Origin: Patiria miniata
Lineage: Eukaryota
Reading direction: 5' to 3'
Assembly: GCF_015706575.1 (NCBI RefSeq)
Contig: NW_024037073.1
Coordinates: 20,086,740-20,150,739 of the forward strand
Length of the DNA: 64,000 nucleotides
Shown here in pieces: positions 34,440-58,539 of the stretch. Made by a program: the position numbers and the translations under genes. Below the pieces are notes generated by a model that saw only the letters and a list, made by a program, of their open reading frames with translations, did no database searches and had not been told where the DNA came from. Every line of letters starts with the position of its first letter. Position 1 is the first letter of the stretch.

Positions 34440-35830
34440 CCCTCTCGCCGACACGGATTTACGCCACTGCCCTTGGGTGACGCTGGGACGTCTTTAAGGC
34501 CGGTTTTCTCCGTGATGACCAAAAAAGTTCTTTGTGGTGACTACAACATTGGTTTGTTGTTATATTTTATAGACTTATTTTACCTATCCTGAACATTTAT
34601 TAAAGGAAGTTTCAAACCAGTCTGGTAGGCATTGATTGAGTAAGTGTTCAAGCAACGCGTGGGTTGTTTCTGCGTGTTCAATAGTACGGAATATTTTCTT
34701 TACACTGGGACGTCTTTAAGGCAGGTTTTATCCGTGATGACAAAAAAAACTTTTTGGGGTGATTACAACATTGTTTTGTCTTTATACTTTATAGACTTAT
34801 TTACATTTCCTTAACAATAATTGATGGTAATTTCAAACTAGTCCGGTAGGTATTGATTGCGTTATTGTTCAAGCAACGCGTGTTTTTTTGGGTTTTTTTG
34901 CGTTTTAAAAAGTCTGGAGTATTTTCTGTACATTTAGACGTCTTTAAGACAGATTTTCTCCGTGATTACACAGTTATTTGTTTCCGTTAACTGCAACATT
35001 GGTTTGCCTTAATACTTCAAAGGCTTATTCAACCTGCACTTAACAATAATTAACGGAAATTCCAAAACAGTACGATAAGTATTAAATGAGTTATTGTTCA
35101 AGCAACGCGTGGATTGTTCCTGCGTGTTCAATAGTCGGGAGTATTTTCTGTACACTGGGACGTCTTTCATGCAGTTTTTACCCGTGATGACAAAAAGTAT
35201 CTTTGTGGTGACTACAACATTGGTTTGTCTTAATACTTTATAGACTTATTTTACCTGTCCTTAACAATAATTAATGGTAATTTCAAACCAGTTCGGTAGG
35301 TATTGATTGCGTTATTGTTCAAGCAACGCGTGGATTGTTTCTGCTAGTTCAATAGTCGGGAATATTTTCTGTACACTGGGACGCCTTTCATGCAGGTTTT
35401 ATCCGTGATGACAAAAAAGTTCTTTGCTGTGACCACAATATTGGTTTGTCTTTATATTTCATAGGCTTATTTAACCTATCCTTAACATTGATTAAAAGAA
35501 ATTCCAAAACAGTACAATAAGTATTCAATGAGTTATTGTTCAAGCAACGCGTGAGTTGTTTCTGCGTGTTCAATAGTCTGAAATATTTTCTGTACACTGG
35601 GACGTCTTTAAGGCAGGTTTTATCCGTGATGGCAAAAAAAAAGTTTTTGGGTGACTACAACATTGGTTTGTCTTGATACTTCATAGACTTATTTTACCTA
35701 TCCTTAACAAAAATTAATGGAAATTTCAAACTAGTCCGGTAGGTATAGATTGCGTTATTGTTCAAGCAACGCGTGTGTTGTTTCTGCGTGCTAAAAAGTC
35801 AGGCGTATATTCTGTACATTTAGACGTCTT
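34440..35830 (+). repeat. Tandem array of a ~220-bp unit (about 6.3 copies). It continues at 36700-37130 after two inserted small elements.
   Basis: Recurring ...cactgggacgtctttaaggcaggttttatccgtgatgac...ggtttgtctt(t/a)atactttatagacttatt...gttcaagcaacgcgtg... with period ~220-230. Confidence 0.9.
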
Positions 35831-35833
35831 TAA

Positions 35834-38111: not shown

Positions 38112-38744
38112 TTAAAGTTCTGCCGTGCACGGATTTTGCTGGCAGAGTTCTTCACCTCCGAATTCCAGGGCTGCTCCTTTAAATACCTTCCTCTCCACGA
38201 GCTGGTAGCTGAAGTAGCGTCTTTCATACACAGAAATATCTACCGTCGCAGAATAACTCTCGACCAAGACGTTTTGGAATCCGTACTCCGTCGGGCCCCT
38301 GAGACACTTCTGCAGGGTCGCGGGAGGGGCACTGGCGTCCACAACGACCTTGTACCAAAACGATTCCACTTCGATTCTCGCCACACCGCTGCATCCGTCG
38401 GCGGTTATTCGGGTGACCGAATTGTCCGGGCGGAAGTCCAGTTCCAGGCCGGTGCCGGTGCCGTAGTCTCGGAAACCGAATAGATGAGCCGGTATCGATA
38501 CTCCCCCCGCGAACCTCAGCCTGCCGAAACTCCCCGCGAAGGCTGCGGAGCTGGTTGCATCGACGCCCTGCATCCAGATCCAAGATGGCGGAAAGCCGTC
38601 TCCCCAGTTCTTCTCCTGGTGCATCGTGGCGTTACCGTGGAGACTGAGACCCTCTGCGCTGTTCTCCCAGGTGTAGGTCCCGACCGATGCGAGGCTGTAG
38701 ACGAACCAGTGGAGCGGGACAAACGGGAGATTACTGAGCCAGCC
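38112..38744 (-). CDS. Same gene, terminal exon 2 (GWLSNLPFVPLHWFVYSLASVGTYTWENSAEGLSLHGNATMHQEKNWGDGFPPSWIWMQGVDA...QQNPCTAEL*).
   Basis: Open frame extends upstream of ORF 38112..38624(-) to a phase-0 acceptor cccgag| (plus 38746-45) that matches the phase-0 donor of exon 1. An alternative phase-1 acceptor lies at plus 38754-53. Stop at 38114-12. The EGWYAR / WGDGFP..WIW motifs may relate to tocopherol-cyclase-like proteins, stated from memory only. Confidence 0.5.
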   Translation of the reverse strand, partial: GWLSNLPFVPLHWFVYSLASVGTYTWENSAEGLSLHGNATMHQEKNWGDGFPPSWIWMQGVDATSSAAFAGSFGRLRFAGGVSIPAHLFGFRDYGTGTGLELDFRPDNSVTRITADGCSGVARIEVESFWYKVVVDASAPPATLQKCLRGPTEYGFQNVLVESYSATVDISVYERRYFSYQLVERKVFKGAALEFGGEELCQQNPCTAEL

Positions 38745-39066
38745 CTCGGGACCTGAGAATGGGACAAAATTATTCCATCATGATAATGACACAGGCCTAT
38801 ACTTGCTGCAACAAATTAAGAAGGTTATAAATACCGACAGTGTTATTTAACAACCGCCCCTTGTATTCATGTTTATATAGATCGGTCCCAGCTGGAATGG
38901 ACAAACTGACTTCACCGAGTCGAAATTGCGGCCGTTTTAGATGTGTCCAACAGTCACTCACTTCCCAACGCACACTTGCCCAAAGTGGCGATATACTGAC
39001 AGGGCACGTGGCGCGACGCCCCCATGCAGCTGGAGTCCTGTGAGCCCCATGACAGTGGCGTAGCCA

Positions 39067-39106
<40 letters not shown>

Positions 39107-39406
39107 GAGGGGCGCCAGCCCCCCCCCCCCCCATGAAACCTTGTCGCCCCCCAGTCGCCCCCCACTGAGATTTTGAGTTTCTAAAAAAATTATCATTGAT
39201 CTACATGACGCCCCCCCATGAAATGTTCCAGCCCCCCCCCAGCGCCCCCCCCCCCCCCCCCACTGAAAAATTCCTGGCTACGCCACTGCCCCATGAGTCC
39301 CCCCTCCCCCGTTCAAAACCCTATCCAGAAATGAGGTCTTACGTGCGCCCCAAATTGAATCCTTGTTGTGCTACTGCAGAGCTTGATTGTGACTTGATGG
39401 TCTCAC

Positions 39407-39897
39407 CTTTCCCATCCGGCCCCACGGAACCGGAGGCCCAAAGCTCCCAGACAAACTCTGGTCTCCGATCGTGAAGTTGAAGACTGTCGATTCACCCGTG
39501 ACAGTGAACGACCCGTACGGCTCAGCGGCCCATCTGAAGTTGGCCGGACTCCGGTCGTCCGGTTCGCGTCCACGGGCCTCCCACCGTCCACCGTCACGGA
39601 GATGCTGTTGAGATCGGGGTAGGCCTCCGCCACCACGAGCGGTGCCTGGGCGCCAGCACTGCGGATGATGGCTATGTACGTCAGTGGGGTCGCATCGCCA
39701 GCAGGCCCTGAGTTGGTTTTGGGCAACACACGACCGAAGAGAACGCCGAAAGACTGCGGGGAGGAACTGTCAGTTATACGGGCGTACCAGCCCTCGATGA
39801 ACGGTCCCTGGCTCGGGTAGACGTGTGGGTCGTACTGGTTAGCCAGCACAAGTTGGGAGACCAACGTCGACAGTAAAACAAAACATCCAATGTTCAT
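39407..39897 (-). CDS. Secreted protein of unknown family, exon 1 (MNIGCFVLLSTLVSQLVLANQYDPHVYPSQGPFIEGWYARITDSS...VDANRTTGVRPTS, then a frameshift to ...ANFRWAAEPYGSFTVTGESTVFNFTIGDQSLSGSFGPPVPWGRMGK). Possible pseudogene or assembly error.
   Basis: ATG at 39897 followed by a hydrophobic signal peptide. Protein-like translation switches from one frame to the -1 frame near plus 39545. A strong donor AAG|GTGAGA (plus 39406-05) closes the exon in the second frame. Six-frame ORF 39403..39990(-). Confidence 0.5.
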
Positions 39898-40924
39898 TTT
39901 CAGGCTGATGCGCACCATCGTAACAAACTCCTTTATAAAAATCAGATTTTCCACTCTCATAGTTGTGTTGAAGATGAGAAATTGACACACGGCCTTAACA
40001 GAGATTGATTAGTCCTTATCTTTTTTTTAGGTTCAACAATGGCACCTTTCAATATCTACACGTCCTTGATAAGTCATTTCATAATACATGTACATGTAGA
40101 TGACAGACAGATAATGTACTTGCTATAGTGCAAGTCATATAGTGGTAGAAATGAACTTTGTGCCCCTCCATTCCGGCAGTAGGCCTACTAGGTTTCCGGT
40201 TGCACGGCCTAGTATTTTAGATGTGGTGGCGCACTGCATGCAAGATAGAAAGGCCAGTCGAGGCATGTACCTGAGCTCACTGGTTTCAAAATGCCTGATA
40301 CCAATTAAGAATATAATTATAATAACGTATTAATATGTCCGATATGATCCCAATTCCTATTTGCTTTTCCAGCAGATCAATCAAGACAAAACACACCACC
40401 ATTACGTCCCATGACGAAGATTGTCCTAGTATATAAAGACTGGTTGTTCACTGCAGTGCATGCCCGTCGCCCGTGTTGGCTTGTTCAAACTTACTAATCG
40501 GACAAAAATGAATATACGACAGGGGGAATCAATAATTTCAACTTCTTTTCTACCATTCACAGTAGCGGATCTAGAGGGGAGATTGGATGGGGTGTCGCAC
40601 CCCCCCCCCTTCAATTGCTGATTAATGCTAAGAAACTAGAAAATGAGGTCAAAATAATAAAATGGAATGCTAAAGTTCCCAAATTCATTTTCCAAAAAAA
40701 ATCGAATGCAGAAAAAAAACAACGTAAATTTCAAAATTTCCCTGCGGAAGAGCAAGCACACCTTCATTCACCCCCCTTCATATCACCTGAACTCTATATC
40801 AGCCACTTTTTCCTCCACTAACCACCAACCTAAGTGCCAACATTCTCAGGTGTTGGCATTGAGGCTACTTTGTGAGAGTTAAAACGCAAATAAACTTTAA
40901 CAGGGAAAAGCTGACATCAAGGGA

Positions 40925-41605
40925 CACAAAAAACAGCGCGTCCCAAATACAAATTTTTTTTTGGCGAGGCTCTAGCGTCGAAGCGGAAACACGAACCGCC
41001 ATTATTTTTATACAGTTTTAAAGCTTGCAATCTAAACTTTATCCCAGGCGAGTATTGGTTTGATATTTAAAAGAGTTGTAACATTAGTTGTATTTAAAAA
41101 AAAAAAAAAAAAAAGGCATGTCAAAAACAAACTCAACCGATTTCAATAAAATTTGATGATGCGGTACATCAGATGCAAACTCGAATCACACTATGAGCGC
41201 GCTTTTTGAATAGGTACATACTTGCACGTGAATTTCAAAATTGAACTTGAAACGAAGAACAATGTTGTGAATTTATTTAAGGTGTAGTCTACGTGGATCG
41301 AAAAGAATAGGAAACACAGAAGTAACAGGCAACGAGATCGTCACATCATGAACATGAAGCATTTCCACATTAAAAAATAATGCGCATGGTTGATTTTCCT
41401 TGAAATCGGTTGAGTTTGTTTTTAACATGCCTTTAGTTGAACATGTGTCGTTTCAAAACCTTTTTTAAAAATCAAACCAATACTTACTATGCAGGGATAA
41501 AGTTAAGATCCCAAGCTTTAAAATGATATAAAAATAATGGCGGTACGTATTTCCGCAGCGACGCTAGAGCCTCGCAAAAAAAAAATGCTGCGGGTGTTTT
41601 GGACG
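40925..41605. mobile_element. ~680-bp foldback element with long (~230-bp) inverted arms surrounding a short central region.
   Basis: 40935-41170 is the reverse complement of 41380-41605, for example ggcgaggctctagcgtcgaagcggaaacacgaaccgccattattttta vs taaaaataatggcggtacgtatttccgcagcgacgctagagcctcgc. Confidence 0.65.
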
Positions 41606-42200: not shown

Positions 42201-42606
42201 GGCTTCGCAATTCGTGCTCGTATTATTTCTAATCAAGGTATGTCCCCCCCCCCCACACACACTTTTGAGAAGCGATTGACGCCCTGACTCCTGGGTAAAG
42301 AGAAGCTAGTGTGGTGCCTTGCCCAAGGACACAAGCACCATGTTCTCCGTCATGGGCCGAACACCGTAACTATTGGACCATATATCGCTCAACATATCTG
42401 CGGTCCATCTTAAGTCAAGAATTAGGCCCACCATTCCGCCAACAACCCCACTTCGTTTTGCGAGCTCTGCGCATATCCCAAATTCCAAATCCAAAACAAC
42501 AATGAGTTTCAACTTCCAAGAGAACAGCATAAGGAGAATGGATCGTGATGGCTTCATTTGCATCTTGTGAACGGCAGTCCGTTCCCTGTGCCTTCCGCGG
42601 TCCAAC

Positions 42607-42730
42607 ATGGTGATGGCTGTGCATGACTCCAATAATATCAGATTGACCATGCACCATATTCTCATGTCATTGGTCTTATTTTCACATCTATGGATGCTGA
42701 TAACTGCCAGCCCTGTGTCGTTCGTTAAAG
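42607..42730 (+). CDS. Mosaic serine protease gene, exon 1: start codon and signal peptide (MVMAVHDSNNIRLTMHHILMSLVLFSHLWMLITASPVSFVK). Ends at a phase-1 donor AAAG|GTAGGT.
   Basis: First ATG after an in-frame TGA at 42568-70. Hydrophobic stretch MSLVLFSHLWMLITASP. Strong donor gtaggt at 42731. The phase-1 donor matches the phase-1 acceptor of the next exon (g+at=Asp). True start Met could be one of the later in-frame ATGs. Confidence 0.55.
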
Positions 42731-42949
42731 GTAGGTACAATGTTTGATAAATTAAAAAATAATGAAGAAAACCAAAAAAATTTATGCGGAGGGTGTGGAG
42801 TGTGGTCCCACTGCTGGACTTGAAATTGACACGCTTATTGATTAAGTGCGTCTACACGCCTTAACGTCACGGAAGCTCTTTCCAAAATTCCAAATCTCAA
42901 CAGGATATTTAGTCTCATTCTATGCTTAATAAAGTTCATAATTTCTCAG

Positions 42950-43084
42950 ATAAGAGCGACAAGCGTTGCAAGGCGTGGGAGTTCGCCTGTGCCAGCGGCC
43001 AGTGTATCGATGGCGACTTGGAGTGCGACTGGTATTACGACTGCGAGGACGAGAGCGATGAAGGTGCCGATTGCAAATACACAG
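42950..43084 (+). CDS. Mosaic serine protease, exon 2: LDL-receptor class A module 1 (CKAWEFACASGQCIDGDLECDWYYDCEDESDEGADC), phase 1-1.
   Basis: Acceptor tttctcag| at 42948-49 and donor ACAG|GTATAG at 43085. Six Cys with the DCxDxSDE calcium-binding motif. Open frame matches six-frame ORF 42922..43179. Confidence 0.8.
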
Positions 43085-44857
43085 GTATAGCCACATTAAA
43101 CAATCGGCACAGTTTAAAGAGGGATACAGTCACTTACTTTGATGATTACTCCCTTGACCAGATACTAAGACCGTATTAAAGTGGCGGAACTCTATGAGTA
43201 TGGCCCCAGGCCTGTGCTCCTTGTCCCCCGCTGAAATTTCGAGAAGACAGGCACATTTTTTTTGTAGAAGCCGAATTTTCGTCCCGTCCAGAATAAAAAT
43301 GAGGCCACCAAGTACATCTTGCAAATAAGGTCAATATTACGTATCTATCGTCTCAAAGACCCACACGAGACAATTTATTGACACTTTGTTTTCAGCTATG
43401 GGATCCCCCACAGCAGCATATGAGTCTGGCCCAATCGCTAACGAAAGAGAGATGGGCACTCCATTCTTGTTAACACAGGTTCCCTTGTTTTTCAGCCACA
43501 AAAAAAATGCAAAAAAATCCATGTGCTAAAGATGAGGTTTTGAACATTTCATCCTCAACTTAGTAAATCAGTCTTACTTTAAAGTCGTTAAGCAAAAAGG
43601 TTAGGAGAATAACGTAGTTTTATAATGTGGTACTCGGACGTAACATTTATGGATTATGTAGGCCTACAATGTGTGAGTCCCTACATTTTCTAACCATTTC
43701 CTAACAAAACTACATGCAATTGTATTTGCAACGACTGACTATCACCGAATTTTTTTTTCTTCAAAAACAGCATCTTGATACAGAAATCGTTTACTTGTCT
43801 TCTCTTCTGAATTCGTTCAATCACGTTAGGGACATGCAATTCTCAAGATTCCAACAAAGATTATAAGGTTTTTAGGGAAGTAACTTATACTGACCGACGT
43901 ATGGGAGCTTACCATCTGTCCAGACAATTTAGCCTCGTTTCCATATCGCCAAAAAGAAACTCAGAGAGCAACGCAAACAAGTCCCAAACTGCAACGCAGA
44001 CATACGGAAACATTTCACCCACAAATGTCACGACGACCCGGACGTAGACGCAAACTATCTTGCAGACGATCAGCAATTAATTAAACCCGGTTCAACTTTC
44101 CCAACGGTTCCGAGCACTATCTGCGCAGTGTCTGCATAAGCTTTACGTCGATATGGAAACTAGGCTTTAGGCGAGCCGGCCAACCCCTTACGATGCCGGC
44201 AAAAGAAACAGCATCACGCCGACACGATAGCACTGGCACTTCAGCCGTTACCGACCCATGCAGTGTATGCATGTAGAGTACCGACAAAAAGCAGGCTCCA
44301 CGCGCACGCCGGCACAACACCGGTACAAGGCCGGCACAACGCCGGCACAGCGCCGCCACAACGCCGTTACAACCACTTCATACGCTTGCATAGTTCCGGC
44401 GCAAACGCCGGCCCCAAACCCTTCAAACGCTGGCTTAACACCGGGAAAATGTCGGCGTTTCACGGTTTCGATCACGTCAGACGCTTGCGTGGGACCGGCA
44501 CTGTGCCGGCACAACGCCGGCATGTGGCGTCGTATCCCTCGCGCCAACTTTGTGCCTCTCATTCACGTCGCTCAGAAGAGCAAGCTCCGCATATTTGAAG
44601 TCAATGGACCGCTGAGATCGCCTTCTAACACCTGTATCATAAATAAAATAAAAACCTTGAAACATGATATCCTCACAACGAAAGAAAAGAGTTGAAAACG
44701 TATTACGGTCCACTACGAAGGTTAAAACTTTTATTACTAAAATTACGTCATTAAAGAAACAGTGGTTTCCAATTATAACTTATGACAAGTCAAGGTCAAA
44801 CTTCTTCGTTTGCGGGTTTACATCGCATTCCAAGATTATTCTTATTCAACTCCCCAG

Positions 44858-44959
44858 GATTTACATGCGAAGAGGGGACAACCATGGTGTCCGATTCCTG
44901 GCTGTGTGATGGTCATGCGGACTGCAAGGACAAGTCGGACGAAAAGGAGGAGAACTGTC
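44858..44959 (+). CDS. Mosaic serine protease, exon 3: LDLa module 2 (FTCEEGTTMVSDSWLCDGHADCKDKSDEKEENC), phase 1-1.
   Basis: Acceptor ctccccag| at 44856-57 and donor C|GTAAGT at 44960. DCKDKSDE motif. Within ORF 44782..45012. Confidence 0.8.
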
Positions 44960-45063
44960 GTAAGTATGGCAAGACCCCTCGTCACCTAATCAATCATATA
45001 GGAGGTCTCTAAGTTGCCGTTTTTGCTCATTCATTTTTAGAAACAAAATCTTTAAATTCACAG

Positions 45064-45201
45064 TTTCTGCAGTGGAAGCCAATACCTGCCGCACAGTGTC
45101 CTGTGATAACAAGTGCTTAAAGGAGGCAGAAATATGTGATGGCATTGAACAGTGTGTTGATGGTGCAGACGAGCTTCTGGACAACTGCAAGAACATAAGA
45201 T
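45064..45201 (+). CDS. Mosaic serine protease, exon 4: degenerate LDLa-like module 3 (ANTCRTVSCDNKCLKEAEICDGIEQCVDGADELLDNC), phase 1-1.
   Basis: Acceptor ttaaattcacag| at 45062-63; an alternative in-frame AG at 45070-71 would remove 3 codons. Donor T|GTAAGT at 45202. Six Cys with DGADE in place of DxSDE. Confidence 0.65.
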
Positions 45202-45825
45202 GTAAGTAAGGATTCCTCGATTTACCATCATCCTCACCTTTTGTATACCTATTCTCAATAATTAAGTGAGGTTCCATATTTATAAGCACATAGCAATTTC
45301 ATATAAGGCAGGAACTGCAGTGTAATTGCTGTACAAAAACTTGTCACTTTTTTTTTGGGGGGGGGGGGTGGGTGGGTCAGTTGTCAGTGGCGAATCGGGG
45401 GGGGGGGGGTCCTCCAGGCTCCAGCTGCTGAATAATGTCATGATACTGGTAAAATGGGACAAAAAATTAATAAATGGAATTCTAAAGTTTCTAAATTTAT
45501 TATAAACTTGCCTTAGAATGCAGGGGAATACATTGTTTCAGTAGATGTTAAACATTTCTGGGGGCATGGCCGGAGCCGCACGCCCTCACTCAAGTGATTA
45601 AACCCCCCTTTACATCAACCCCACCCCCTTTCCTGAAAGTCAGATTCGCCCCAGGCTGTCAATTGTTAATTTTAATATCTTAGATCTTTTTTTTGTGAGT
45701 TGGGAGTTTCTGCAAACCCGCAAGATTCAGATTTAGTTTTATGAATTATTTTTTGGACATTGATATGTGAATATTCGGGAGTTTTCTTAAGTTTGATCAA
45801 CAAATCTTTTTTTGCTGATCTGTAG

Positions 45826-45937
45826 CTTGCTTCAGATGCCGTTCTGGAGAGGCATGCCTCAAGTGGTCCTGGGTGTGCGACAACATAGCGGACTGCAATG
45901 ATTGGTCGGATGAAAACGGCTGACATCTGCGGCACAG
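45826..45937 (+). CDS. Mosaic serine protease, exon 5: LDLa module 4 ([35 protein letters not shown]). It carries an apparent +1 frameshift in the run gatgaaaacgg, with an in-frame TGA in the entry frame.
   Basis: Acceptor tctttttttgctgatctgtag| at 45824-25 enters in the CFRC...DWSDE frame. Donor ACAG|GTAAAA at 45938 is phase 1 only in the +1 frame (ADICGT). The neighbouring exons fix both phases. Length 112 nt, where 111 would be clean. Confidence 0.6.
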
Positions 45938-46309
45938 GTAAAATAAAAGTTTCTACCATTTGATTCAAATGAGTTTGCTCAACTAACAACTTAATGGGTA
46001 GTTTGGAATATCAAAACAAAACCAAAGAAATCGACAGAGCATACAAATAATGTCAATATGTTTCTTCCAAGTCAAATTCTCATCAATATGTATTCCCAAA
46101 AATGAAAGAACCCAATGGCCACCTTGGAAAATCTGCCCCCCCCCCCGAAAAAGGGCACCTCCATAATTTTTTTTAAACAGCTCTGACAAGAAACTGATTT
46201 TTGACTCAGCGTTATTTTATCACAAGATCCACCAGACGAAGCTATGTAAATCACTGGGGTTTTCTTTACCACTTTTGTTGATGATTTTGTTTTCCTTTGT
46301 TAATCTCAG

Positions 46310-46429
46310 TGGAGGACCGCTGTTGGAAAGGAGCCTTTCCCTGTCACCATCAAGACTTCTGCGTGCCTCAGGGATGGCGATGCGACAAGGACAACGATTG
46401 CGGGGACGGCTCGGATGAAACTAACTGCC
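46310..46429 (+). CDS. Mosaic serine protease, exon 6: LDLa module 5 ([36 protein letters not shown]), phase 1-1.
   Basis: Acceptor ttgttaatctcag| at 46308-09 and donor C|GTAAGA at 46430. Canonical LDLa consensus with DCGDGSDE. Confidence 0.85.
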
Positions 46430-47034
46430 GTAAGAAACCCGATCACGGCGTCATAATTGCACCTCGCCCAAGAAAACATGCATCATTTATAAGATTAGGG
46501 CAAAAATCAACCTTTATCCCCAAAAATTACCAGTAATGCTGGCTGTTTGCAATTGCCAAGCAGATTGTTTTTTCCACACTCAGCAGTTTTGCATGCTGAA
46601 CAGAGTCCTATGAAATCATTTCCGTATGATAACAATCATTTCAAGAAGTGCTTATTTTCACTTTTGTTGTACTTTAAGGCACATCTCATAGGGCATTCCC
46701 CCCCCCCAAAAAAAAAAAACCCTTGGTCTATAAAATAAAGAAAAATCTGTAAATCAAACAAGAAAAATCTTACATAATAAAAACCTGTATTTTTGAAGAA
46801 TATATATCTCTGAGAAATTGTTACAATTTAGTGACATATTTCCACTCTAACCTGAACATTTAGGAAAGCGAGTCACCTTTCACAGAAAAAAAAATTTCAG
46901 CCCAATCCCCCTTTTTGTTTGTTAGAGGCTCACACAAACAAACAAAACCTGATGAATTTCTCTGTGATAAATGCAGTATTATGAATTTGTTTCTCCTACA
47001 AAAAAAACCATGCAGTTTAAAAAAAAAGGTAAGG

Positions 47035-47275
47035 TCTGTCATGAGCCAATGTGGCCCATCATGATAGCATTTATCTCTGGTTTCCTTGGGATGCCAGTCC
47101 ATCACAGGTTACTCCCCAGCTAATGCCAGTACCCATTTATACTCCTGGGTGGAGAGAGGCAAGTGGGGGTGAAGTGGCTTGCCCAAGGATACAACATATG
47201 GCCAGCAGTGGGACTCGAACCCCTGACCCTCTGATCAGGAGTCGTGAACCCTGAACACTAGGCCACACTCCCAAA
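47035..47275 (-). mobile_element. tRNA-derived SINE copy (minus orientation) in the intron between LDLa5 and the TSP1 exon.
   Basis: The reverse complement contains a tRNA-like head with A box tggcctagtggttag and B box ggttcgagtccc, then a conserved body ...ggcaagccacttcacccccacttgcctctctccacccaggagtataaatgggtac... Confidence 0.75.
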
Positions 47276-47366
47276 TTCACTTCAATCTTCTTCCCTCGTA
47301 GAGGACAATTAAATCTGTCATTTATAAATAAAAGTTCGGATTGCTTTTATGACATTCCCATCGCAG

Positions 47367-47552
47367 ATGTCAAGTCGGCCTGGGATCCCGTGTACGGCTG
47401 GAGTTTATGGAGTGAATGGTCGGCCTGCAACACCGACTGTGGGCCTGGTCAGCGGCAGCGCTACCGACTGTGCCACGAGCTGAGCATTGCCTGCGCCGGG
47501 AAAGAAGTTCAGCTTGAGAGTTGCCAGCAAAAAGAGTGCGTCCCGGAAAAAG
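47367..47552 (+). CDS. Mosaic serine protease, exon 7: thrombospondin type-1 repeat (WSLWSEWSACNTDCGPGQRQRYRLC...ESCQQKEC), phase 1-1.
   Basis: Acceptor ttcccatcgcag| at 47365-66 and donor AAAG|GTGACA at 47553. Shows the WSxWSxWSxC, CGxGxxxRxRxC and C-terminal CxxxxC pattern of a TSR. Confidence 0.8.
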
Positions 47553-47740
47553 GTGACAAGTTCTTACACTCAGATTTTCAGAAGTATTATGGTAGAAGAA
47601 GTAAAAAGTTGGGTCTAACTCATATTCGCCAATCGGGCCCTCCTTCTCAGGTAGTCAACTTATATAAATGACGCAGATATGATGAGATTCATCTGTGATG
47701 CCACCTTTTGTTTTTTCTTCAATTCTGGTCTGCTCTGTAG

Positions 47741-47951
47741 ACGTGGGTTGCGGCACAAGGCAGTTACCGACCTGGCAGCCGTTATTTGTGAAGCGTATTG
47801 TGGGCGGCGTAGAGGCAGTGGCCGGCTCCTGGCCCTGGCAGGCCCAGCTCTTCCATCGGTTCAAGAGCGGACGGCAGGTGGCCATCTGTGGCGGGACGCT
47901 GGTCAGGGACAACCTTGTTGTGACGGCTGCTCACTGCTTCTTGAAAACAAT
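47741..47951 (+). CDS. Mosaic serine protease, exon 8: activation site and N-terminal part of the trypsin-like domain ([16 protein letters not shown]|[18 protein letters not shown]...[20 protein letters not shown]; catalytic His).
   Basis: Acceptor tctgctctgtag| at 47739-40 and donor AAT|GTAAGT at 47952 (phase 2). Contains R|IVGG, WPWQ and TAAHC motifs. Confidence 0.85.
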
Positions 47952-48084
47952 GTAAGTCTCGATACAATGTGATTAAATTAAAGAAAGATTTGATCAGATT
48001 GGGTTGTGTTCTTTTACAATTTACCAATAAAGCAAAAACTATATAGTAAGGTTTCATCGTAACAAAGTTCTTTGGAGAATAAGG

Positions 48085-48375
48085 GCTTTCCTTATGTCAC
48101 GAGCCAGTATCGCCCATCAGGCAAGCGTTTATCTCCTGTTTCACTAGCATGAAATGACTGGGAATGTTTCTATTCCCCCTGGATGGGATGCCAGTCCATC
48201 ACAGTTACTCCACAGCTAATGCCGGTACCCATTTATACTCCTGGGTGGAGAGAGGCAAGTGGGGATGAGAGGCTTGCCCAAGGACACAACATATGGCCAG
48301 CAGCTGGATTCGAACCCCTGACCGTCTGATCATGAGTCACACGAACCCTAACCACTACGCCACACTCCCCCAAGG
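48085..48375 (-). mobile_element. Second copy of the same SINE (minus orientation) in the intron before protease exon 9.
   Basis: ~85-90% identical to 47035-47275 over the alignable part. Confidence 0.75.
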
Positions 48376-48722
48376 GCTTGGCCGTTGCAGATTGGTGAAA
48401 AAACCACATCTACAATCTATCTTTGATAAGACTACGTACATTACATTTTAAAGTTAACAAAACAAGCCAATAGAGTCTCTGTGAAGAAAACAAAAATCAC
48501 ACAATTTCTAAAGAGGTTCGGGTCTCAGTGATGAAAGCAATACTTTAAAATGTAACCTCTTAAAAGTTAAGTTCATATCAAGTCTGCACAACCTATTCAG
48601 TACAGGTCAAAACCCAATCCTGTGGTAAACCTGTGCAACTCCACAAACAAGGGATACTGCAGGAAAGTGTACATCAGATCTTACCCACCTCCAAGATATT
48701 TGTTTTTCTTTTATCAAACCAG

Positions 48723-48988
48723 GAATGACGCAAACTCTTGGAAGGTGCACCTGGGCAAGCATACAATCGACCTCCATCTTGGCTCTGGCGAGCAAGAGGC
48801 AAACATCAAGCACATCATCAAGCACAAAGAGTTCAACAGCAAGACCATGCAGAACGACTTGGCCGTCTTGGTATTAGACAGGTCCCTGTCCCTGGATGGC
48901 AAGCAAGTCAATGTGGCCTGCCTGGACGAGGATTTGGACATGAGGGACAAGACTCACTGCTTTGTGACGGGATGGGGATTGACGGAAA
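48723..48988 (+). CDS. Mosaic serine protease, exon 9: middle of the protease domain (NDLAVLVLD carries the catalytic Asp; ...CFVTGWGLTE).
   Basis: Acceptor ttttatcaaaccag| at 48721-22 (phase 2) and donor A|GTAAGG at 48989 (phase 1). Contains the DIALL-like motif and GWG. Confidence 0.8.
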
Positions 48989-49602
48989 GTAAGGGTGAAA
49001 TGCAAAGATCGTACAGCACCGCGTAGCGGCGCCTTGTACAAGTAAAAGCTGGCGCAGTGTTTGCAATCTAGTACAGTGCTTACACAAATATGTAGAGGGG
49101 CAAACGCAACACATATTTTAAAAATAACATCTTTGATCGAAAGTTTTCCAACACTGGTCGGGCCGACCAGCGTTGGAGAAAACTGGCTTTTTTTTTAAAA
49201 CTGCTCCTAAATTTTCATATTTAGTTATTCCGCATTTTCTTTGCAATTGATTACAGACATGTAAGGGTCTGGTACAAGCCTGCTAGACTGATTCTCTGAC
49301 CTTACAATTCCCCAAAGTCTATAAATTGCTCCGTTTCATCTTAAGTGGGGTCAGGGAACCAGACTACAAGAACATGATTGGTTTTCTCGGTTTTTCCAGC
49401 ATCTACAAGCCCAAAACGTGAAACAAGTCAGTTATTAATATTTGCTATAACATACTTATCTTCCAAATCCATTTATTTCTGAAAATTGCAGCAAAGCAAA
49501 TGTTGTAGTACATTCCCTAAGTGATAGATCAAATCTCGCCGAGAAACACCAACGATATAAAACACTCAGATCTTGCATTTTGGTTTTTTGTTCTTTGTGC
49601 AG

Positions 49603-49751
49603 TGGGAGGGAGACAAGCCAGGAAACTTCAGGAGGCCCCCGTGCCTATCCTAAGCCAGAGTCAGTGTAACCACAAGGATGTCTACAAGGGGATGGTTAGG
49701 GACACCATGATGTGTGCGGGGTACCTGGCTGGAGGAATTGATGCTTGCCAG
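49603..49751 (+). CDS. Mosaic serine protease, exon 10 (ARKLQEAPVPILSQSQCNHKDVYKGMVRDTMMCAGYLAGGIDACQ).
   Basis: Acceptor ttgttctttgtgcag| at 49601-02; an alternative AG lies at 49607-08. Donor CAG|GTAAGT at 49752 (phase 0). Shows the vPilsxxxC and MxCAGxxxGGxDACQ motifs typical of the S1 family. Confidence 0.8.
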
Positions 49752-50752
49752 GTAAGTCATCAAAGGTGACCCTCCAGCACAAACCAATTTTAGAAAATTG
49801 GGATTTTATGCTGATTGCAAAGGACATTGAATAAAATTTCCAATGTGGTATAGAATATGGGAATCAGACCAAATCTGACGGAGTTATACACATGTTCAGT
49901 TCCTGATTTTGAGGCCTCAGAATTTTTTTTAGAATCAAGAATTTAATCGTTAACAGTTTCCCAAATGAACTCCTCCAGAAATTTACAAATTAACTACATA
50001 AACAGTGACATATATTCATTATTCTAGCTTCTAACGCCCAATTCTAAATGTTTGATCATTTTTGCCGGTACGATATTCCTCATTCATTGATCTCAAAATA
50101 CAGCGATGCAATTTTCAACTGGTTTTGTGCTGGGTCACATATGACGTATACAAACTCAACAATGGAAGATGCAATGTAGCTACTGTATATAAAAAGTGAG
50201 GCTGTGTGACTTTCTGATGGAAAAAATCTGATTCATGTTCTTATGGCTGAGATTTCAAAATGTCGGTTTAAAGTCCACTTTAACAACAGTAAATGTTGCT
50301 TTTTGGAAAGGTGCTTCACCAAATTTGTTTTCCGTGTTGTATTTGAAGTTGTACTTATTACATGCTAATTAAAGTAACAAATTATAACAATATTAAACAT
50401 ACATTGTACCAGTCAGCAGCAACAAAATCATTTAGGGTAAATCTATTTTGATTTTTGAGTCTACTTGATTTTCTGAGAATAAAAGAAAAATTGACAAACG
50501 TGAAATTGACCCCCGACTCCTTCAGTCAATTTGTTAAGGTGCAGAAAATTGCAGGCGAGATTCGTAATGAACACTGAAATTTATCGTTTGTGTGTGTGTT
50601 TTCAAGAAAGGCTCAGTCTCAGTGAGAGGCTACAGTGAACTAAAATACAAGGGGAAAGTCATGAAGTTTTATTTTTTCAGAAACCTGTGCCTTAAATGTC
50701 ACTTATGGCAGTACATGTATTTTGAATGTTCTTATTTTTTTCTTTTCTTCAG

Positions 50753-50923
50753 GGGGATTCAGGCGGGCCTCTGATATGTGAGTTGTCCGACGGTCGTTGG
50801 CACCTCGTCGGGGTCACCAGCTGGGGCCGTGGGTGCGCCATGGCCAACAAGCCAGGGGTGTATACCAAAGTGGCGCACTTCACACAGTGGATTGAAGACC
50901 ACATAAAGAAACATGGACTTTAG
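50753..50923 (+). CDS. Mosaic serine protease, terminal exon 11: [56 protein letters not shown] (catalytic Ser, S1 pocket Asp, stop TAG at 50921-23).
   Basis: Acceptor ttttcttttcttcag| at 50751-52 (phase 0) joins DACQ|GDSGGP. An AATAAA signal lies at 50935-40, just after the stop. Confidence 0.9.
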
Positions 50924-51974: not shown

Positions 51975-52200
51975 GATACAAATCAAATTAGGTTTTTGCC
52001 CTTCACCGACGTTTAAACACTGTATACTCAGTGTGTTACCTCCCGAGTGAAACTTGGAAAAAATCACTCGGATGGGACTCGAACCCACGAGCTCCTGCTT
52101 TCTAGCGCATCCGAGTGATTTTTTCCAAGTTTCACTCGGGAGGTAACACACTGAGTATACAGTGTTAAAACGTCGGTGAAGGGCAAAAACCTAATTTGAA
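51975..52200. mobile_element. Near-perfect ~225-bp foldback whose centre looks like the 3' half of a tRNA (GGTTCGAGTCCCATCCGAGTG on the minus strand).
   Basis: 52014-52070 is the reverse complement of 52113-52170. Outer arms 51975-52013 and 52171-52205 are also inverted. Centre ...cactcggatgggactcgaacccacgagctcctgctttctagcgcatccgagtg. Confidence 0.6.
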
Positions 52201-53295
52201 TCTATAGAGTGTTTTGCAGCAAGTATTTTACAACTGTCAAGGGCTTTAACCAGCTAAAAGGATAGAAACAATGAACAGCCGTCGACAGAAAAGTTACCGT
52301 CGACCAAAAAAAGTGGCACCTGAAAACAAAACGCAGCAACTTTATGATAAAGTAACATCACAGTCGTGTGTGTATGTGCGTAGTTTTTTTTTTTTTTCCA
52401 ATATTCAAACCGGCAAAAAGCTTTTCTCATATTCGGTTGATGATCAAATATTTGGGACAGCCCTGCGCAAAAGTACTTATATCTGTGTCTACCATGCATG
52501 ACATCAGGTTCACACACACACACATTACATTTACATCACAAATATAAACAATCCTAAAAGATCACAAAAATCAGGAAATCTGTACCATTAACTTGTCACA
52601 GGCTTTCAAATCTGCGAATAATACTTGCAAATGTATTCTGCCGAAATATCAAATTTAACGCCAGAGCATCACACTTCTAAAATTATTTTGATAAAGATTT
52701 GCCATATATATTACATGAGGAAGAAAAATTTACTACTTTTCAAAAGCTATCTTTAACTGATACGCATTTGCACAATATTAGATACTCAGGGTCACTGCAT
52801 GCAGTTTTTATCTTTGATAAAAGGCATAAATTAGTGGGAATTCTATTCAAAAACTGATTTACCATGACAGACTCGGACTTTATTTAGGAGTATTAATAGG
52901 AGCTTTGTATAAAGGTTTTCAGCACAAAATTACCGGATTCTTCTTCTAATTATCGTAACCTTAAATGCAGCAACACAAGTTTTTGTAGAATTGTTTGTAA
53001 GAAACTGAGATAAAAAAAATGCCTGGAAGATGAAAAAAACAATTTAATTTTGTCCTTGTTTGATATAATGAGTAAATACCAACACTGTTCAAAATCCCCA
53101 AATACTATTCAACAGATGGATTTAACATATTCATATTGTCTGGTGCCCGGACCCCTTGGGTATAAAGTCACTGAAGACCAGCATCAGATCAGAAAACCAG
53201 TTTATCCAAATGCCCTTGAAGTGATTATGCGTCATGGGACTTATCTGTTTTAGAAGTTTAGGATGGGGGGGGGGGGGGGGGGGGGGCTTGTGTGT

Positions 53296-53424
53296 TTAGT
53301 TGTTCCTCACAAAGTCTTCCCCCTTGGCAATGTTACCCTTCAGTTCACCCATGGCATCGGCAAGTAGTTTTGTCTCGAAGTTGGAGAGCTTGCCGAAACC
53401 CAGATTCTTCTCAAGACCATTTTG
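53296..53424 (-). CDS. MDH2: MDH2, terminal exon 8: QNGLEKNLGFGKLSNFETKLLADAMGELKGNIAKGEDFVRNN* (stop TAA at plus 53298-96).
   Basis: Acceptor ...tttttgcag| (plus 53426-25). Matches the MDH2 C-terminus ...[37 protein letters not shown]. The eight exons total 1026 nt, giving 341 aa. Confidence 0.9.
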   Translation of the reverse strand, partial: QNGLEKNLGFGKLSNFETKLLADAMGELKGNIAKGEDFVRNN

Positions 53425-55297
53425 CTGCAAAAACAGGAGTTTTATATCAAGTTAATGTTTCTGAACCAGCGTGTGGCAAAATGTTACCCTCGTCCATGAC
53501 AATGAGACAATTATTTTTTTTGGAGGGGTGGGTCTTTTTAAAATTTCTAAGAACATTTGCTTCGCAGATAAGAAACAAAGTAAGTCTAGGGTGGCTCTTG
53601 ATCACTTTTAGAAAATGCTCGGTTCTCTCGGAATACATAATGTCTAGCCTGAAATTGCATTTGATAAAGCCGGCATCTGCTGAAAAAACTGAGAAATGTT
53701 TGGAACTAATTATTAAGATGATATGAGCAATAATATTTGAACCTTACTACATCAGCAAATTATTTTACTTTGCAATTATCTTCTAATACTTCCCACCTCC
53801 TACACTTGTGACAATCTTAGCATAAGGAAGAAGCAGCTACATGATCAAGTATCACCCTTCAAGATTTTTAATTGACAATGAAAATTCAATCGTTCGGAGA
53901 CTCTTTACTAAAAAGGCCTAAATCCCCCCAATTTGTGACAGAAATCGCTACTCCTGCCTTGCAAGCAAAATCTGTTTTTAAATGATAAAAAAGAATAAGG
54001 TTAACAAACAAATTTCTTTTGTGAGTGTGTGTGGTTCTGAAAAACAAATTGGAAACTCAGTCTCCTGACAATGGGCAGAGTCTCCCACTACTTTTTTCCG
54101 AACCACACAAACTCACACAAGAATTTGTTTCGTCATATAATGCAACTGCAAACTTTCTCTGATGTTTTCACCATGCAAACCTTTAAAGGTGAATATACAG
54201 CATTTGCCTTTGCTGTAATTTTCAGAAATGGATGGAGTTGGGGGTTACACTATATTGTGTTCATAGATGCTGAAAAAAAAAAGAAAAAAAAAAGCTGTTC
54301 TTGAAGTCTGGTTCCCTGACCCTACTTCAGACAAAACAGAGCAATTTATAGATGTCCGGGCAGCCTCTACTCCATGGGCGCGTGCGCGTTGCTTCACTAA
54401 CCCCTGGCCACAATGTACACATAAACGGATGCTGACTGGCTATTCAGAGCGTACTGCTCGGGCATTTCGAAGACTGCACGCTGAGCGCGCCCATAATGCG
54501 CTCGCGTGCTTTGTATGTCACGTCACGTACGAATATTCAAACTGCGCGAAGCCTGCACGATATGGATTATGGCAGCCTCGTTTTCGTTAAAAAAACTCTG
54601 TATCTGCGGTTGTAAAGGGACGAAAGGGGTACGTACCTTTAATACAAATCTTGGATAAATAACATAACATCCAAACCTTATGTTTGAAAGGATTGATTCT
54701 TCAAAAACACAACTTTCAACATTTTAAAGATGGCGTCGGCACGTAAAATGGATAAACTGCAGCCTAATTATAATGTGCCATATTTTGACACATTTAAATT
54801 ACACAATTCCAGGGGTTGAGATCACGCAAGGCATGATGGGAAACAACATGGTGCAGCAAGATCTTGTACCCATGGGAACGAGTTGATGTCGGGGGAATTG
54901 TCAGTCAGGGAACCAGACTAGCTGGCTTGCACCCGTTTGTGGATGTGTAACCGATTGCAAACAAAATGGGGACTAACTAATTTTCTAAATTGGGAGCAAT
55001 ATTTGAAAAATGTCAGTCTTTCCAACGATGCTCGGCCAACCATCTTTGGAAACGGATACAAAATTCCACTTTTCTTGGAAATGACAGCCCCCTAGGTGCC
55101 ATGATTTCACAGGATGCTTGAGACTATTATTCACTTACAGTCAAGTAAGGTATTTCATAATGATTTGATAGTTTTGTTTTTTGATGTTTGCAAATGTTGT
55201 ATATTACCTAACATCGAAGCAACACAATTTTGGTTCTTTCGAGCAAAGTTTTTATCTGTACAGAAAAATAAAAATATTATCAGATCAAACGTCTTAC

Positions 55298-55399
55298 CCC
55301 AAGCAAAACTGGGTTGGCAAAGTATCCAGCCTCTGTGATATCTGACTTGACAAAGGCGCACTCGACGACTCCCTGCTCACCGTTAAGAGCCTTCAGAAC
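55298..55399 (-). CDS. MDH2: MDH2, exon 7: VLKALNGEQGVVECAFVKSDITEAGYFANPVLLG.
   Basis: Acceptor ...ttattcacag| (plus 55401-00) and donor GGG|GTAAGA (plus 55297-96). Matches MDH2 ...[31 protein letters not shown]. Confidence 0.9.
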
Positions 55400-55787
55400 C
55401 TGTGAATAAAAATACGATTTGCTGCTTGAGAAAAATTCTTTACTTCTCAAATCAAGGTAGGTACATCGCCTGTAAATTTTTTGGGGGAAAAATGCGGGGT
55501 CAATGTGGGAATTTTAAATTTTAAACTTTTAAATAGGTGACAAGATTTTCTGTGAGTTGAAACAAAACTGTTATCATGGCCAACATGCAAGACGACACCA
55601 CTAAAAACACTTTTGAAAAGGGTATCTGAGACCAATATTGTCACTTTTCTCTATAAAAATATGTCAACTTCTGCAAACTGATGTCGATACACATTTACTA
55701 ATTGAAGGGAATCTACGAGGAAAAGTTTTGGATCTTAGAAAATGAAATTTAGTTATGATGTAGAAAAAAACGATTCCAATGACTTAC

Positions 55788-55838
55788 CGAACTTCCAAAC
55801 CTTGCACCAGCCATTGCCATGGACAATGTGGCAGAACC
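55788..55838 (-). CDS. MDH2: MDH2, exon 6: GSATLSMAMAGARFGSS.
   Basis: Acceptor ...aactacag| (plus 55840-39) and donor TCG|GTAAGT (plus 55787-86). Matches the GSATLSMAYAGARF motif. Confidence 0.88.
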
Positions 55839-56511
55839 CTGTAGTTTAATAAGAAAATGTCCATTAATTAAAACATACATTCAAAAAGTGTATGAATTGG
55901 ACTCCACAAATGATGTCTAGAGGGCGCCATGTAGTATAACAAGTGAAGGGCACAATTATGACCATTGTGCATGAAGGTGTGTGCTGTTCATTCAATTACT
56001 GAAGATTCGATACTTTATTCACAAAAGACTCGATACTTTATTCACATTCTAAGACTTTTTGCAGACCACTGAACTGTCCTGCATCGACAACAATGTCTCA
56101 AATGTCCTCTGCAGAGGTGAACTTGTGCATACAGAGTGGTATGGTGTATTATTACTTTTTTTATATATACAGTCGAATCTCGTTAGTGCAAACTCTGTTA
56201 ATACAAAATTCTGGTTATAACAAACACAAAGCCTTAGTCCTGACTGTGCATTTATCTGCACAATGAATGGGACTTATGTTCCTCTTAATACAAAATTCTG
56301 ATATAACACACAATTTGGCTAGGTCCGAACGAGTTTGTATTAATGAGACTCGACTGTATTACTGAAGGAATAGCTGTAACCATACATCTACTATAATAGG
56401 TTTGAAATGGAAAATAGATTGTTAATAACTGTGTTGAGAGTTTTGCATCAATTTGTTTTTAGGTGTTTTTTTTTTTTTTAAATTAATGATGTTGATTGTC
56501 TAGATACTCAC

Positions 56512-56610
56512 AGCTCCAGCCTTGGCATTGACCACCTCAGTGCCTGCATTCTGGATACGATCAGACAGCTTCTCCAGCTCATCATCTGTGAACGATACTG
56601 AGGGCTGGGT
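56512..56610 (-). CDS. MDH2: MDH2, exon 5: [33 protein letters not shown].
   Basis: Acceptor ...tttcgtcag| (plus 56612-11) and donor GCT|GTGAGT (plus 56511-10). Matches MDH2 ...RIQEAGTEVVKAKAGAG. Confidence 0.9.
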
Positions 56611-57100
56611 CTGACGAAACAATACAAACACGGACATGCAGTTCTTGCATCAACAAGATCTTGGTAGAAACGTCCAGCAGAAACTGTCTATTGGGTACCA
56701 TGCAGCATATTTTATGTCTTTGGGTCTTCCTAATAAACTGGTACCTTGATTTCCTTCTTCTATTCTGAAATTTGTTCAAATATCAGTGACTCAAATTGAC
56801 TCGAGCATAAATTTGACTCGACTCGACCACACAGTGTGACTTGACTCATGTCAATTTTCTTGACCTAATGACTTGATTCAACTCGAGTAACTTCCTTAAA
56901 ATGACTTGACTTGACTTGTGTCACAACACAGTGACTTGTTACAACTCTGGTAACTTTACAAAGCAACTGCCCTGTGATGGATTACCTGAGCAACAGCTAG
57001 AGCAATGCTTTCAGTACCAGTTTGTTCTACTGCCCTCTATTGTCTCAAATTAAGCACCAGGTTGTCTACTGCCCTCTGGTGTCTCAAAGTGTCCATTTAC

Positions 57101-57304
57101 CTGTGAGAGCAGCGGGATGATGGTGATCCCCGAGTGTCCGCCGATGACCGGCACCGAGGTGGTGCTGACATCCAGGCCCTTGAGCTCCGAGACAAACGTG
57201 TTGGATCGGACAATGTCCAGGGTGGTCACCCCAAAGATGCGGTTAGGGTCGTAGACTCCAGCCTTCTTGAAGACTTCAGAGCAGATGGGAACGGTGGAAT
57301 TGAC
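57101..57304 (-). CDS. MDH2: MDH2, exon 4: [68 protein letters not shown] (catalytic His in the IGGHSG motif).
   Basis: Acceptor ...aacaattcag| (plus 57306-05) and donor CAG|GTAAAT (plus 57100-99), phase 0-0. Colinear with human [44 protein letters not shown]... Confidence 0.92.
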
Positions 57305-57569
57305 CTGAATTGTTTACAAAAGTCATGCACATAAAAAGTAGACCAAAAAAATCTATTCAAGGATAAGGGTCGTTACGATCCAAGTATTTCACAATATAGA
57401 AGAACAGCTGTTGAAAAATCCTTCCTTTACCCACAGATACAACAGCCAAACATGACGTCCATTTGTTGATGTTGCCTAATAGTTTCTACCCATATTGTTT
57501 CCAGATTTTTTGGCCATGCATGCCATAAGTTGAAATACATATTGTGAATAACCATGGGTTTTTCCCCCT

Positions 57570-57865
57570 AGTGGGGAGTGTGGCCTAGTGGTTAGGGTTT
57601 GTGACTCATGATCAGAGGGTCAGGGGTTCAAATCCAGCCACTTGCCATATGTAATGTCCTTGGGCAAGCCACTTCACCCCCCCCCCCCCCCCCCCCCCCT
57701 TGCCTCTCTCCACCCGGGAGTATAAATGGGTACCGGCATTAGCTGGGGAGTAACCTGCCATGGGCTGGCATCCCATCCAGGGGGGAATAGAAATATTCTT
57801 AGTAATTTCATGCTAGTGCAACCAGAGATAAACGCCGGCCTGATGGGCCACATTGGCTTGTGATA
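57570..57865 (+). mobile_element. Third copy of the SINE (plus orientation) in an MDH2 intron. Includes an internal poly-C tract.
   Basis: ggggagtgtggcctagtggttagggtttgtgactcatgatcagagggtcaggggttcaaatccagccacttgcc...gggagtataaatgggtaccggcattagctgg... Confidence 0.75.
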
Positions 57866-57894
57866 GACTTTTACTTTTTACTTACTCTTTTCTC

Positions 57895-58370: not shown

Positions 58371-58429
58371 GCCACTTGAAAGTTTAAAGAAAAATGTGAC
58401 ATAATGACGCTGAGAAATGTTGTCCATAC

Positions 58430-58539
58430 TGGGTTAGTGATGATTCCCATGATGGCCGTGGGGCAGTACTTGGCAGCTGCTTCACTCAGAGTCTGGACGA
58501 TGGAGGCATTGGTGTTGAACAGATCGTCTCTTGTCATTC
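58430..58539 (-). CDS. MDH2: MDH2, exon 3: (G)[36 protein letters not shown].
   Basis: Acceptor ...gctgtcctag| (plus 58541-40) completes the Gly codon. Donor CCA|GTATGG at plus 58429-28. The [11 protein letters not shown] motif is conserved in MDH2. Confidence 0.9.

Follow-up and report, generated by a model that had tools for sequence, protein, structure and literature searches.

The closest described system is CGSP1 (cortical granule serine protease 1) of sea urchins. This enzyme is released by cortical granule exocytosis right after fertilization and cuts the p160 tether, which lets the vitelline layer come away from the plasma membrane (bioRxiv 10.1101/369504). The title of an earlier report presents it as autocatalytic and as having an LDL-receptor-like domain (Haley & Wessel 1999, title cited in PMC7221070). 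A cortical reaction in the eggs of the bat star Patiria miniata is likewise named in the title of an older study (Holland 1980, title cited in PMC3228701). Here we examine a 64,000-nucleotide stretch of P. miniata DNA (NCBI RefSeq assembly GCF_015706575.1, contig NW_024037073.1, positions 20,086,740 to 20,150,739 of the forward strand; the whole stretch is called the window below), and in it a gene that combines LDL-receptor class A (LDLa) modules, a thrombospondin type-1 repeat (TSP1) and an S1 serine protease. We propose, with a probability of roughly 0.72, that this gene encodes the bat-star orthologue of CGSP1, which would be secreted at fertilization from the cortical granules of the egg as a self-activating zymogen. 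The gene is a sea-star member of a family that was characterized in urchins 25 years ago, and it is already in RefSeq, where it is mis-named.

The gene was rebuilt from the raw window sequence (Table 1; all coordinates are window positions). Concatenation of the exons gave eleven + strand exons with a total span of 42607-50923 and AG/GT at all internal junctions, in agreement with the original prediction, made from the sequence alone. That prediction had also taken the exon phases to be consistent. This is true of ten exons, among them exons 2, 3, 4, 6 and 7 (135, 102, 138, 120 and 186 nt), each of which is phase 1-1 in a module-per-exon arrangement. It is not true of exon 5, which has 112 nt instead of 111 and consequently leaves in phase 2 instead of phase 1, throwing all later exons out of frame; this frameshift had been missed. 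Upstream of the exon 1 ATG, at a distance of 12 codons, the frame has a stop, and AATAAA signals lie 12-20 nt 3' of the end of exon 11. Removal of one base from exon 5, discussed below, yields a protein of 570 residues.

Pfam was run on the repaired protein, and the LDLa modules were also scanned one by one against the PF00057 gathering score of 24.1 bits. The scan returned Ldl_recept_a (E 8.2e-34, four passing stretches), TSP_1 (residues 256-301, E 4.8e-10) and Trypsin (PF00089, residues 325-561, E 9.4e-65), all well outside what chance would give, and no SRCR, SEA, CUB, FIMAC, Frizzled, MACPF or CCP domain. The predicted count of five LDLa modules, one per exon, stands with a qualification: modules 1, 2, 4 and 5 exceed the gathering score, but module 2 has only 4 Cys and module 3 falls below the cut-off. 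The short form of module 2 is kept in all aligned orthologues, the Cys positions of module 3 are invariant across them, and calcium-cage motifs are present in four or five of the modules. The order first proposed for the protein, namely a signal peptide, LDLa modules, TSP1 and an S1 protease zymogen with an R/IVGG site (a slash marks a cleavage or splice point here and below), agrees with Pfam and with the alignment, the signal peptide being a putative one. Alignment with the relatives shows invariance or conservation of all module Cys, of the R/I(V)VGG site, of Asp189 (IDACQ) and of the catalytic residues His (TAAHC), Asp (NDLAVL) and Ser (GDSGGP). These residues predict a catalytically competent protease, specific for Arg/Lys and with an Arg-Ile activation bond. 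Since that bond follows an Arg and the enzyme's own predicted specificity is for Arg/Lys, self-activation is possible in principle.

A large protein collection was searched with the window protein; the 120 best matches were considered and 133 proteins were fetched. Full-length relatives carrying the same three Pfam families were found in the sea stars Acanthaster planci (73% identity) and Asterias rubens (56%), in the sea urchins Lytechinus, Diadema and Strongylocentrotus purpuratus (45-49%), in the crinoid Anneissia japonica (47%), in the brittle star Amphiura filiformis (42%) and in hemichordates (38-41%). The best S. purpuratus match (P0006) belongs to a 90% cluster that holds NP_999636.2, AAD37426.1 and Q9XZM7, all of them recorded as 'cortical granule serine protease 1 precursor'. 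The window protein is collinear with the originally published AAD37426.1 (47% identity over 530 aa, 11 gaps, E 2e-172), whose Pfam layout is the same (LDLa, TSP_1 262-307, Trypsin 334-570). Both have a leader, five LDLa-type modules with a short 4-Cys second one, TSP1 and an S1 protease, and both have the Arg/Ile-Val-Gly-Gly activation site, the catalytic triad and Asp189; in the multiple alignment these modules, the 4-Cys second one included, stay in register across echinoderm classes. One open reading frame (ORF) spans all modules in the full-length orthologues, among them a 1879-nt transcript contig (L002); this bears out the assignment of the LDLa/TSP1 exons and the protease exons to one gene.

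Further comparisons addressed orthology as such. Reverse BLASTP from CGSP1 among the 133 fetched proteins gave the window protein as the best non-urchin match, with 500 bits against 263 bits for the Patiria paralogue P0037. A neighbour-joining tree built on the protease domain (100 bootstraps) places asteroid, echinoid, crinoid and ophiuroid sequences together as a CGSP1 clade (bootstrap 70), nested in an ambulacrarian LDLa-TSP1-protease clade (bootstrap 100) that also includes two further echinoderm paralogue groups and hemichordate genes. All 11 window exons are matched in the same order in the Asterias gene, and tblastn (at least 90% identity) recovered 9 S. purpuratus CGSP1 exons and 7 Asterias exons, all with the same module-per-exon boundaries. 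The flanks of the Asterias rubens gene are a tocopherol-cyclase-like gene (-), a malate/lactate-dehydrogenase-type (MDH) gene (-) and a rhodanese/dual-specificity-phosphatase (DUSP) gene (+), and tblastx shows the same order and orientation in the window; in the crinoid Anneissia, an MDH-type gene (-) is likewise the downstream neighbour. Positional orthology is indicated within sea stars and to the crinoid, not to the urchin. On reciprocity, phylogeny, gene structure and neighbourhood taken together, orthology to CGSP1 is well supported and, in our estimation, very probable.

The bat-star and urchin genes also differ. Urchin CGSP1 has a longer linker before the activation site. Its TSP1 reads CxxSCxxG, the O-fucosylation consensus, whereas Patiria has CNTDCGPG and sea stars have CNTDCG or CSTFCG. 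In S. purpuratus and Lytechinus there are several copies or isoforms that are nearly identical, against one copy in the sea-star window, and the Patiria genomic copy, unlike urchin CGSP1, is frameshifted. The ambulacrarian paralogues (e.g. A. planci P0022, Asterias P0031, Patiria P0037, Saccoglossus P0024, Glandiceps P0017) follow the same LDLa(n)-TSP1-S1 protease plan and fall in the common clade with 100% bootstrap, but they have two to seven canonical LDLa modules without the 4-Cys module, are only 36-42% identical to the window protein and lie outside the CGSP1 clade. No described function for these paralogues turned up in the literature searched. Sea cucumbers contributed no sequence to the CGSP1 clade among the 120 best matches, and Apostichopus P0011 groups with a paralogue clade; the holothurian absence could be a loss or just incomplete annotation.

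The original prediction had regarded the layout as matching no standard named vertebrate architecture and had put the gene forward as a candidate humoral or immune-cascade protease. No vertebrate protein has the layout, so that part stands. Judged by the comparisons above, however, the layout is not new; it is the architecture of CGSP1, known in sea urchins since 1999. As to the proposed role, a lineage-specific immune protease would have its analogues in complement factor I or in proteases that work with the LDLa/TSP1-bearing terminal complement components. Complement proteins do contain LDLa and TSP1 modules: factor I is a mosaic of LDLa and protease, C6-C9 combine LDLa with TSP1, and all of these are extracellular. 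What the window protein has in common with them is limited to such generic modules, however, and the defining domains, FIMAC and SRCR in factor I and MACPF in C6-C9, are among those absent here, as are CCP and CUB. Neither factor I nor C6-C9 is among the 120 best matches of the window protein. The gene groups with the characterized egg protease, which acts at fertilization, and not with the uncharacterized paralogues, and no immune literature on this family turned up in literature searches. An immune role thus gained no positive support, and we consider it improbable for this gene. The wider family, to which uncharacterized hemichordate members and at least two other paralogue groups of echinoderms belong, leaves room for such a role elsewhere. 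In all, the ambulacrarian LDLa-TSP1-protease family comprises at least three paralogue groups in echinoderms besides the hemichordate genes, and it may include uncharacterized extracellular cascade proteases.

A different identity is implied by the RefSeq names 'TMPRSS3-like' and 'ST14 homolog', under which the protein would belong with type II transmembrane serine proteases such as TMPRSS3, matriptase or hepsin and would sit in the plasma membrane, held there by its N-terminal hydrophobic segment. Among solved structures, the catalytic domains closest to it are indeed those of hepsin (E 8e-56) and TMPRSS2, with plasmin, enteropeptidase and matriptase also near. With hepsin, TMPRSS2/3, matriptase/ST14 and corin the window protein shares the broad catalytic subfamily, an LDLa-containing stem and a conserved Cys before the activation site. 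This linker Cys (GCGTR) is invariant in the orthologues; by the chymotrypsin-fold convention Cys1-Cys122, it probably pairs with the exon 9 Cys (ACLD), which would keep the stem disulfide-bonded to the catalytic domain, as in related proteases. Both the linker Cys and the LDLa stem are similar to those of membrane-anchored proteases. The stems themselves are different, however. TSP1 adjoins the protease here, and there is no SRCR as in TMPRSS3 and hepsin, no SEA or CUB as in matriptase and no Frizzled; Ldl_recept_a, TSP_1 and Trypsin are the only families that Pfam found. The N-terminus consists of a 16-residue n-region and a hydrophobic stretch of about 17 residues followed by ITA/SPVS, and this hydrophobic segment can be aligned with the N-terminal ends of the other sea-star and urchin proteins. 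With so short a hydrophobic segment and an ITA/SP motif conserved among sea stars, it looks like a predicted cleavable signal peptide rather than a signal anchor. Moreover, the record of the urchin orthologue calls it a 'precursor', and the protein is set free with the cortical-granule contents after fertilization. We therefore hold membrane anchorage to be very improbable, and the RefSeq names reflect best-hit transfer.

The CGSP1 orthologue in the window carries its one defect in exon 5, at a run of four A where the orthologue-consistent reading needs three. In the zero frame the protein reads ...DWSDENG into a TGA, and the product as it stands is 198 aa long. With the TGA 949 nt upstream of the final exon junction, the transcript has the layout typical of targets of nonsense-mediated decay (NMD). 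The frame is recovered by a single-base deletion only. Loss of one A from the run gives the 570-aa protein, which is the same, residue for residue, as RefSeq XP_038074677.1 ('LOW QUALITY PROTEIN: transmembrane protease serine 3-like [Patiria miniata]') and which reads DETADICGT at the repaired site, 9/9 identical to Acanthaster planci. Dropping the T of the TGA instead gives DENGDICGT and was discarded, since the A deletion matches RefSeq and A. planci exactly. The 'LOW QUALITY' tag of NCBI denotes that the genomic sequence was altered to obtain a frame; thus, the annotators appear to have met the same defect.

Routes by which the cell itself might restore the frame were also considered. In-phase GT donors exist only at +15 nt (GATGCC/GTTCTG, leaving 5 codons) or in the intron past the stop, and rescue by alternative splicing was rejected; skipping of the whole of exon 5 is the only splice route that keeps the frame, and it gives 533 aa with four LDLa modules. 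Selenocysteine insertion or readthrough at the TGA was rejected because the zero-frame continuation (HLRH...) aligns with no orthologue. Programmed +1 ribosomal frameshifting at GGC-UGA-C, like that at the antizyme or RF2 shift sites, would recover the downstream frame, and a stop codon followed by C is indeed placed where such a shift would do so, reading ...DENGDICGT. However, the orthologue-matching DETADICGT needs a shift upstream, in the A run, and a shift at the stop would give ENGD instead of the conserved ETAD. The orthologues encode this stretch in one frame, and no slippery P-site codon is present. The probability of programmed frameshifting is, in our view, close to nil.

There is more to be said for the view that the extra A is real and that the locus is non-functional in this genome, yielding only a 198-aa fragment or an NMD-degraded mRNA. 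In that case the CGSP1 orthologue would be present here as a null allele that segregates, or as a pseudogene of very recent origin. The extra base and the premature stop are present in the window, NCBI had to alter the sequence to get a full protein, and no in-phase alternative donor offers a way around the stop. In addition, no independent transcript-derived Patiria copy was found in the protein collection (a one-member cluster, and no near-identical fragments in the top 120 matches). Set against this, the frameshift is the sole lesion, with the other splice sites, the module Cys and the catalytic residues intact, and it sits in a homopolymer run, where consensus errors typically arise. Downstream of the shift, identity to Asterias is 58.2% for Patiria vs 59.2% for Acanthaster, and identity to S. 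purpuratus is 44.8% vs 43.0%. This lack of excess divergence argues against long-term decay and makes an old pseudogene unlikely; the extra A more likely stems from an error in the consensus or from a null allele that is young and possibly heterozygous. We regard a non-functional locus as unlikely on balance. Somewhat less likely again is the fuller proposition that the reference bat-star haplotype is a null allele of the CGSP1 orthologue, or that decay has just begun, and that sea stars tolerate reduced or absent CGSP1 activity. Sea-star fertilization envelopes are reportedly more permeable than those of urchins and are said to miss some urchin components, which would accord with such tolerance. 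Whatever its origin, the exon 5 defect bears on the intactness of this copy, not on its membership of the family.

The function that we propose for the bat-star CGSP1 orthologue derives from the characterized urchin protein, and we think that the transfer is perhaps a likely one. The protein would be made in oocytes and kept as an inactive zymogen in cortical granules until it is set free into sea water at fertilization. It could then activate itself by a cut after Arg324, which is chemically possible in that its own predicted specificity fits its own activation site. It would go on to cut, by limited proteolysis, tethers on the egg surface (p160 in urchins) as well as co-secreted enzymes, the vitelline layer would lift as the fertilization envelope, and supernumerary sperm would be shed. 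The calcium-binding LDLa modules and TSP1 would most likely be the parts by which the enzyme docks to other granule and envelope proteins rich in LDLa and CUB. The urchin enzyme is reportedly inactive at acidic granule pH and active at sea-water pH, and it is said to trim ovoperoxidase, beta-1,3-glucanase and itself as well. In vertebrates, ovastacin (mammals) and alveolin (medaka) are astacin-family metalloproteases, unrelated in fold and mechanism to an S1 serine protease. They nevertheless follow the same logic, in that a protease stored in cortical granules or alveoli is set free at fertilization and cuts the egg coat (passages in PMC9855834 and PMC7155028).

Several observations weigh against identifying the gene as a functional CGSP1 orthologue. 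The function is carried over to the sea star from an orthologue at 47% identity. The bootstrap value of the CGSP1 clade, only 70 in a simple distance tree, is moderate, not strong. In S. purpuratus, where CGSP1 was defined, the neighbouring genes differ and the gene is tandemly duplicated, with copies of 580 and 581 aa lying head to tail (L003 1-1811 and 10001-19300). Urchin CGSP1 ends in a His-rich C-terminal tail (HHYLHHE, HHHLHH) that the sea-star, crinoid and brittle-star orthologues are without. Finally, the window ORF as it stands is broken, and, since the XP_038074677.1 cluster has one member, the intact Patiria frame rests on the NCBI correction and on the orthologues.

Table 1. Position and content of the exons, the frameshift and the neighbouring genes in the window
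Feature	Position	Strand	Content
Exon 1	42607..42730	+	Start codon; hydrophobic segment at the N-terminus, probably a cleavable signal peptide (...LWMLITA/SPVSF); ends phase 1
Exon 2	42950..43084	+	LDLa module 1, 6 Cys, CDWYYDCEDESDE calcium cage; PF00057 40.5 bits
Exon 3	44858..44959	+	LDLa module 2, short 4-Cys form; PF00057 38.1 bits, profile positions 8-37
Exon 4	45064..45201	+	Divergent LDLa-like module 3, 6 Cys, ADE in place of SDE; PF00057 16.9 bits
Exon 5	45826..45937	+	LDLa module 4, one base over as found; PF00057 36.3 bits on repaired peptide
Frameshift site	45913..45923	+	AAAA run 45913-45916 (AAA needed) and in-frame TGA 45921-45923
Exon 6	46310..46429	+	LDLa module 5, 6 Cys; PF00057 43.5 bits
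Exon 7	47367..47552	+	Thrombospondin type-1 repeat (WSLWSEWS...); PF00090 46.3 bits
Exon 8	47741..47951	+	Linker Cys (GCGTR); activation site KR/IVGG, scissile bond between codons 47794-47796 and 47797-47799; catalytic His (TAAHC), codon 47932-47934 (codons read off the sequence)
Exon 9	48723..48988	+	Protease domain; catalytic Asp (NDLAVL), codon 48856-48858; Cys in ACLD
Exon 10	49603..49751	+	Protease domain, including Asp189 (GGIDACQ), specifying Arg/Lys substrates
Exon 11	50753..50923	+	Catalytic Ser (GDSGGP), codon 50759-50761; S1 pocket Gly residues; stop codon
Tocopherol-cyclase-like gene (PF14249)	matches 38127-39849, in GC-rich block 38112-39990 (55% GC)	-	tblastx to Asterias, Pfam
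MDH-type gene	53276-61137	-	tblastx to Asterias
Rhodanese/DUSP gene, start	63614-63735	+	tblastx to Asterias

The remainder of the window is rich in repeats. Within the protease gene, two copies of a SINE-like (short interspersed nuclear element) repeat lie in the same orientation in intron 6 (47108-47243) and intron 8 (48204-48338) and are 87-95% identical; a partial copy is present near 42290-42360, just 5' of exon 1. Nested inverted repeats with 102-nt and 52-nt arms (40953-41586) lie about 1 kb upstream of exon 1, and an inverted repeat with 92-nt arms, 99% complementary, and a 33-nt loop (51983-52199) lies about 1 kb downstream of the protease stop codon; both look like foldback or MITE-like (miniature inverted-repeat transposable element) elements. 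The tocopherol-cyclase-like gene has a poly-proline/C-rich low-complexity stretch between its two conserved parts. ARAGORN called a tRNA-Met (CAT) at 57573-57647 (+), in an apparent intron of the dehydrogenase gene with a matched exon on either side, and an Rfam scan of the whole window at the gathering threshold returned nothing; the call may be a tRNA-derived repeat rather than a gene. Positions 1-37000 gave no conserved coding matches to the Asterias locus and are dominated by tandem arrays (e.g. 9821-11557, 19340-20626, 21500-23195, 23917-27926, 29417-30669, 31639-31948, 34483-35833). A satellite of about 383 bp forms three blocks in this upstream half, the largest with 10.5 copies and a 94% match, and the same half has 201-bp and 221-bp arrays, two 21-nt minisatellite blocks in opposite orientation and a 30-nt array.

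The value of these results is mainly one of housekeeping. They supply a correct name, CGSP1 orthologue, for a RefSeq model labelled 'transmembrane protease serine 3-like', and they draw attention to a one-base frameshift that matters to work on bat-star fertilization and oocytes before primers, guides or expression constructs are designed. Should the frameshift prove true, the locus would be a small natural experiment on the dispensability of this protease for the sea-star block to polyspermy. For the family, the comparisons indicate that the LDLa-TSP1-protease layout is no one-off and belongs to an old family found across echinoderms and hemichordates.

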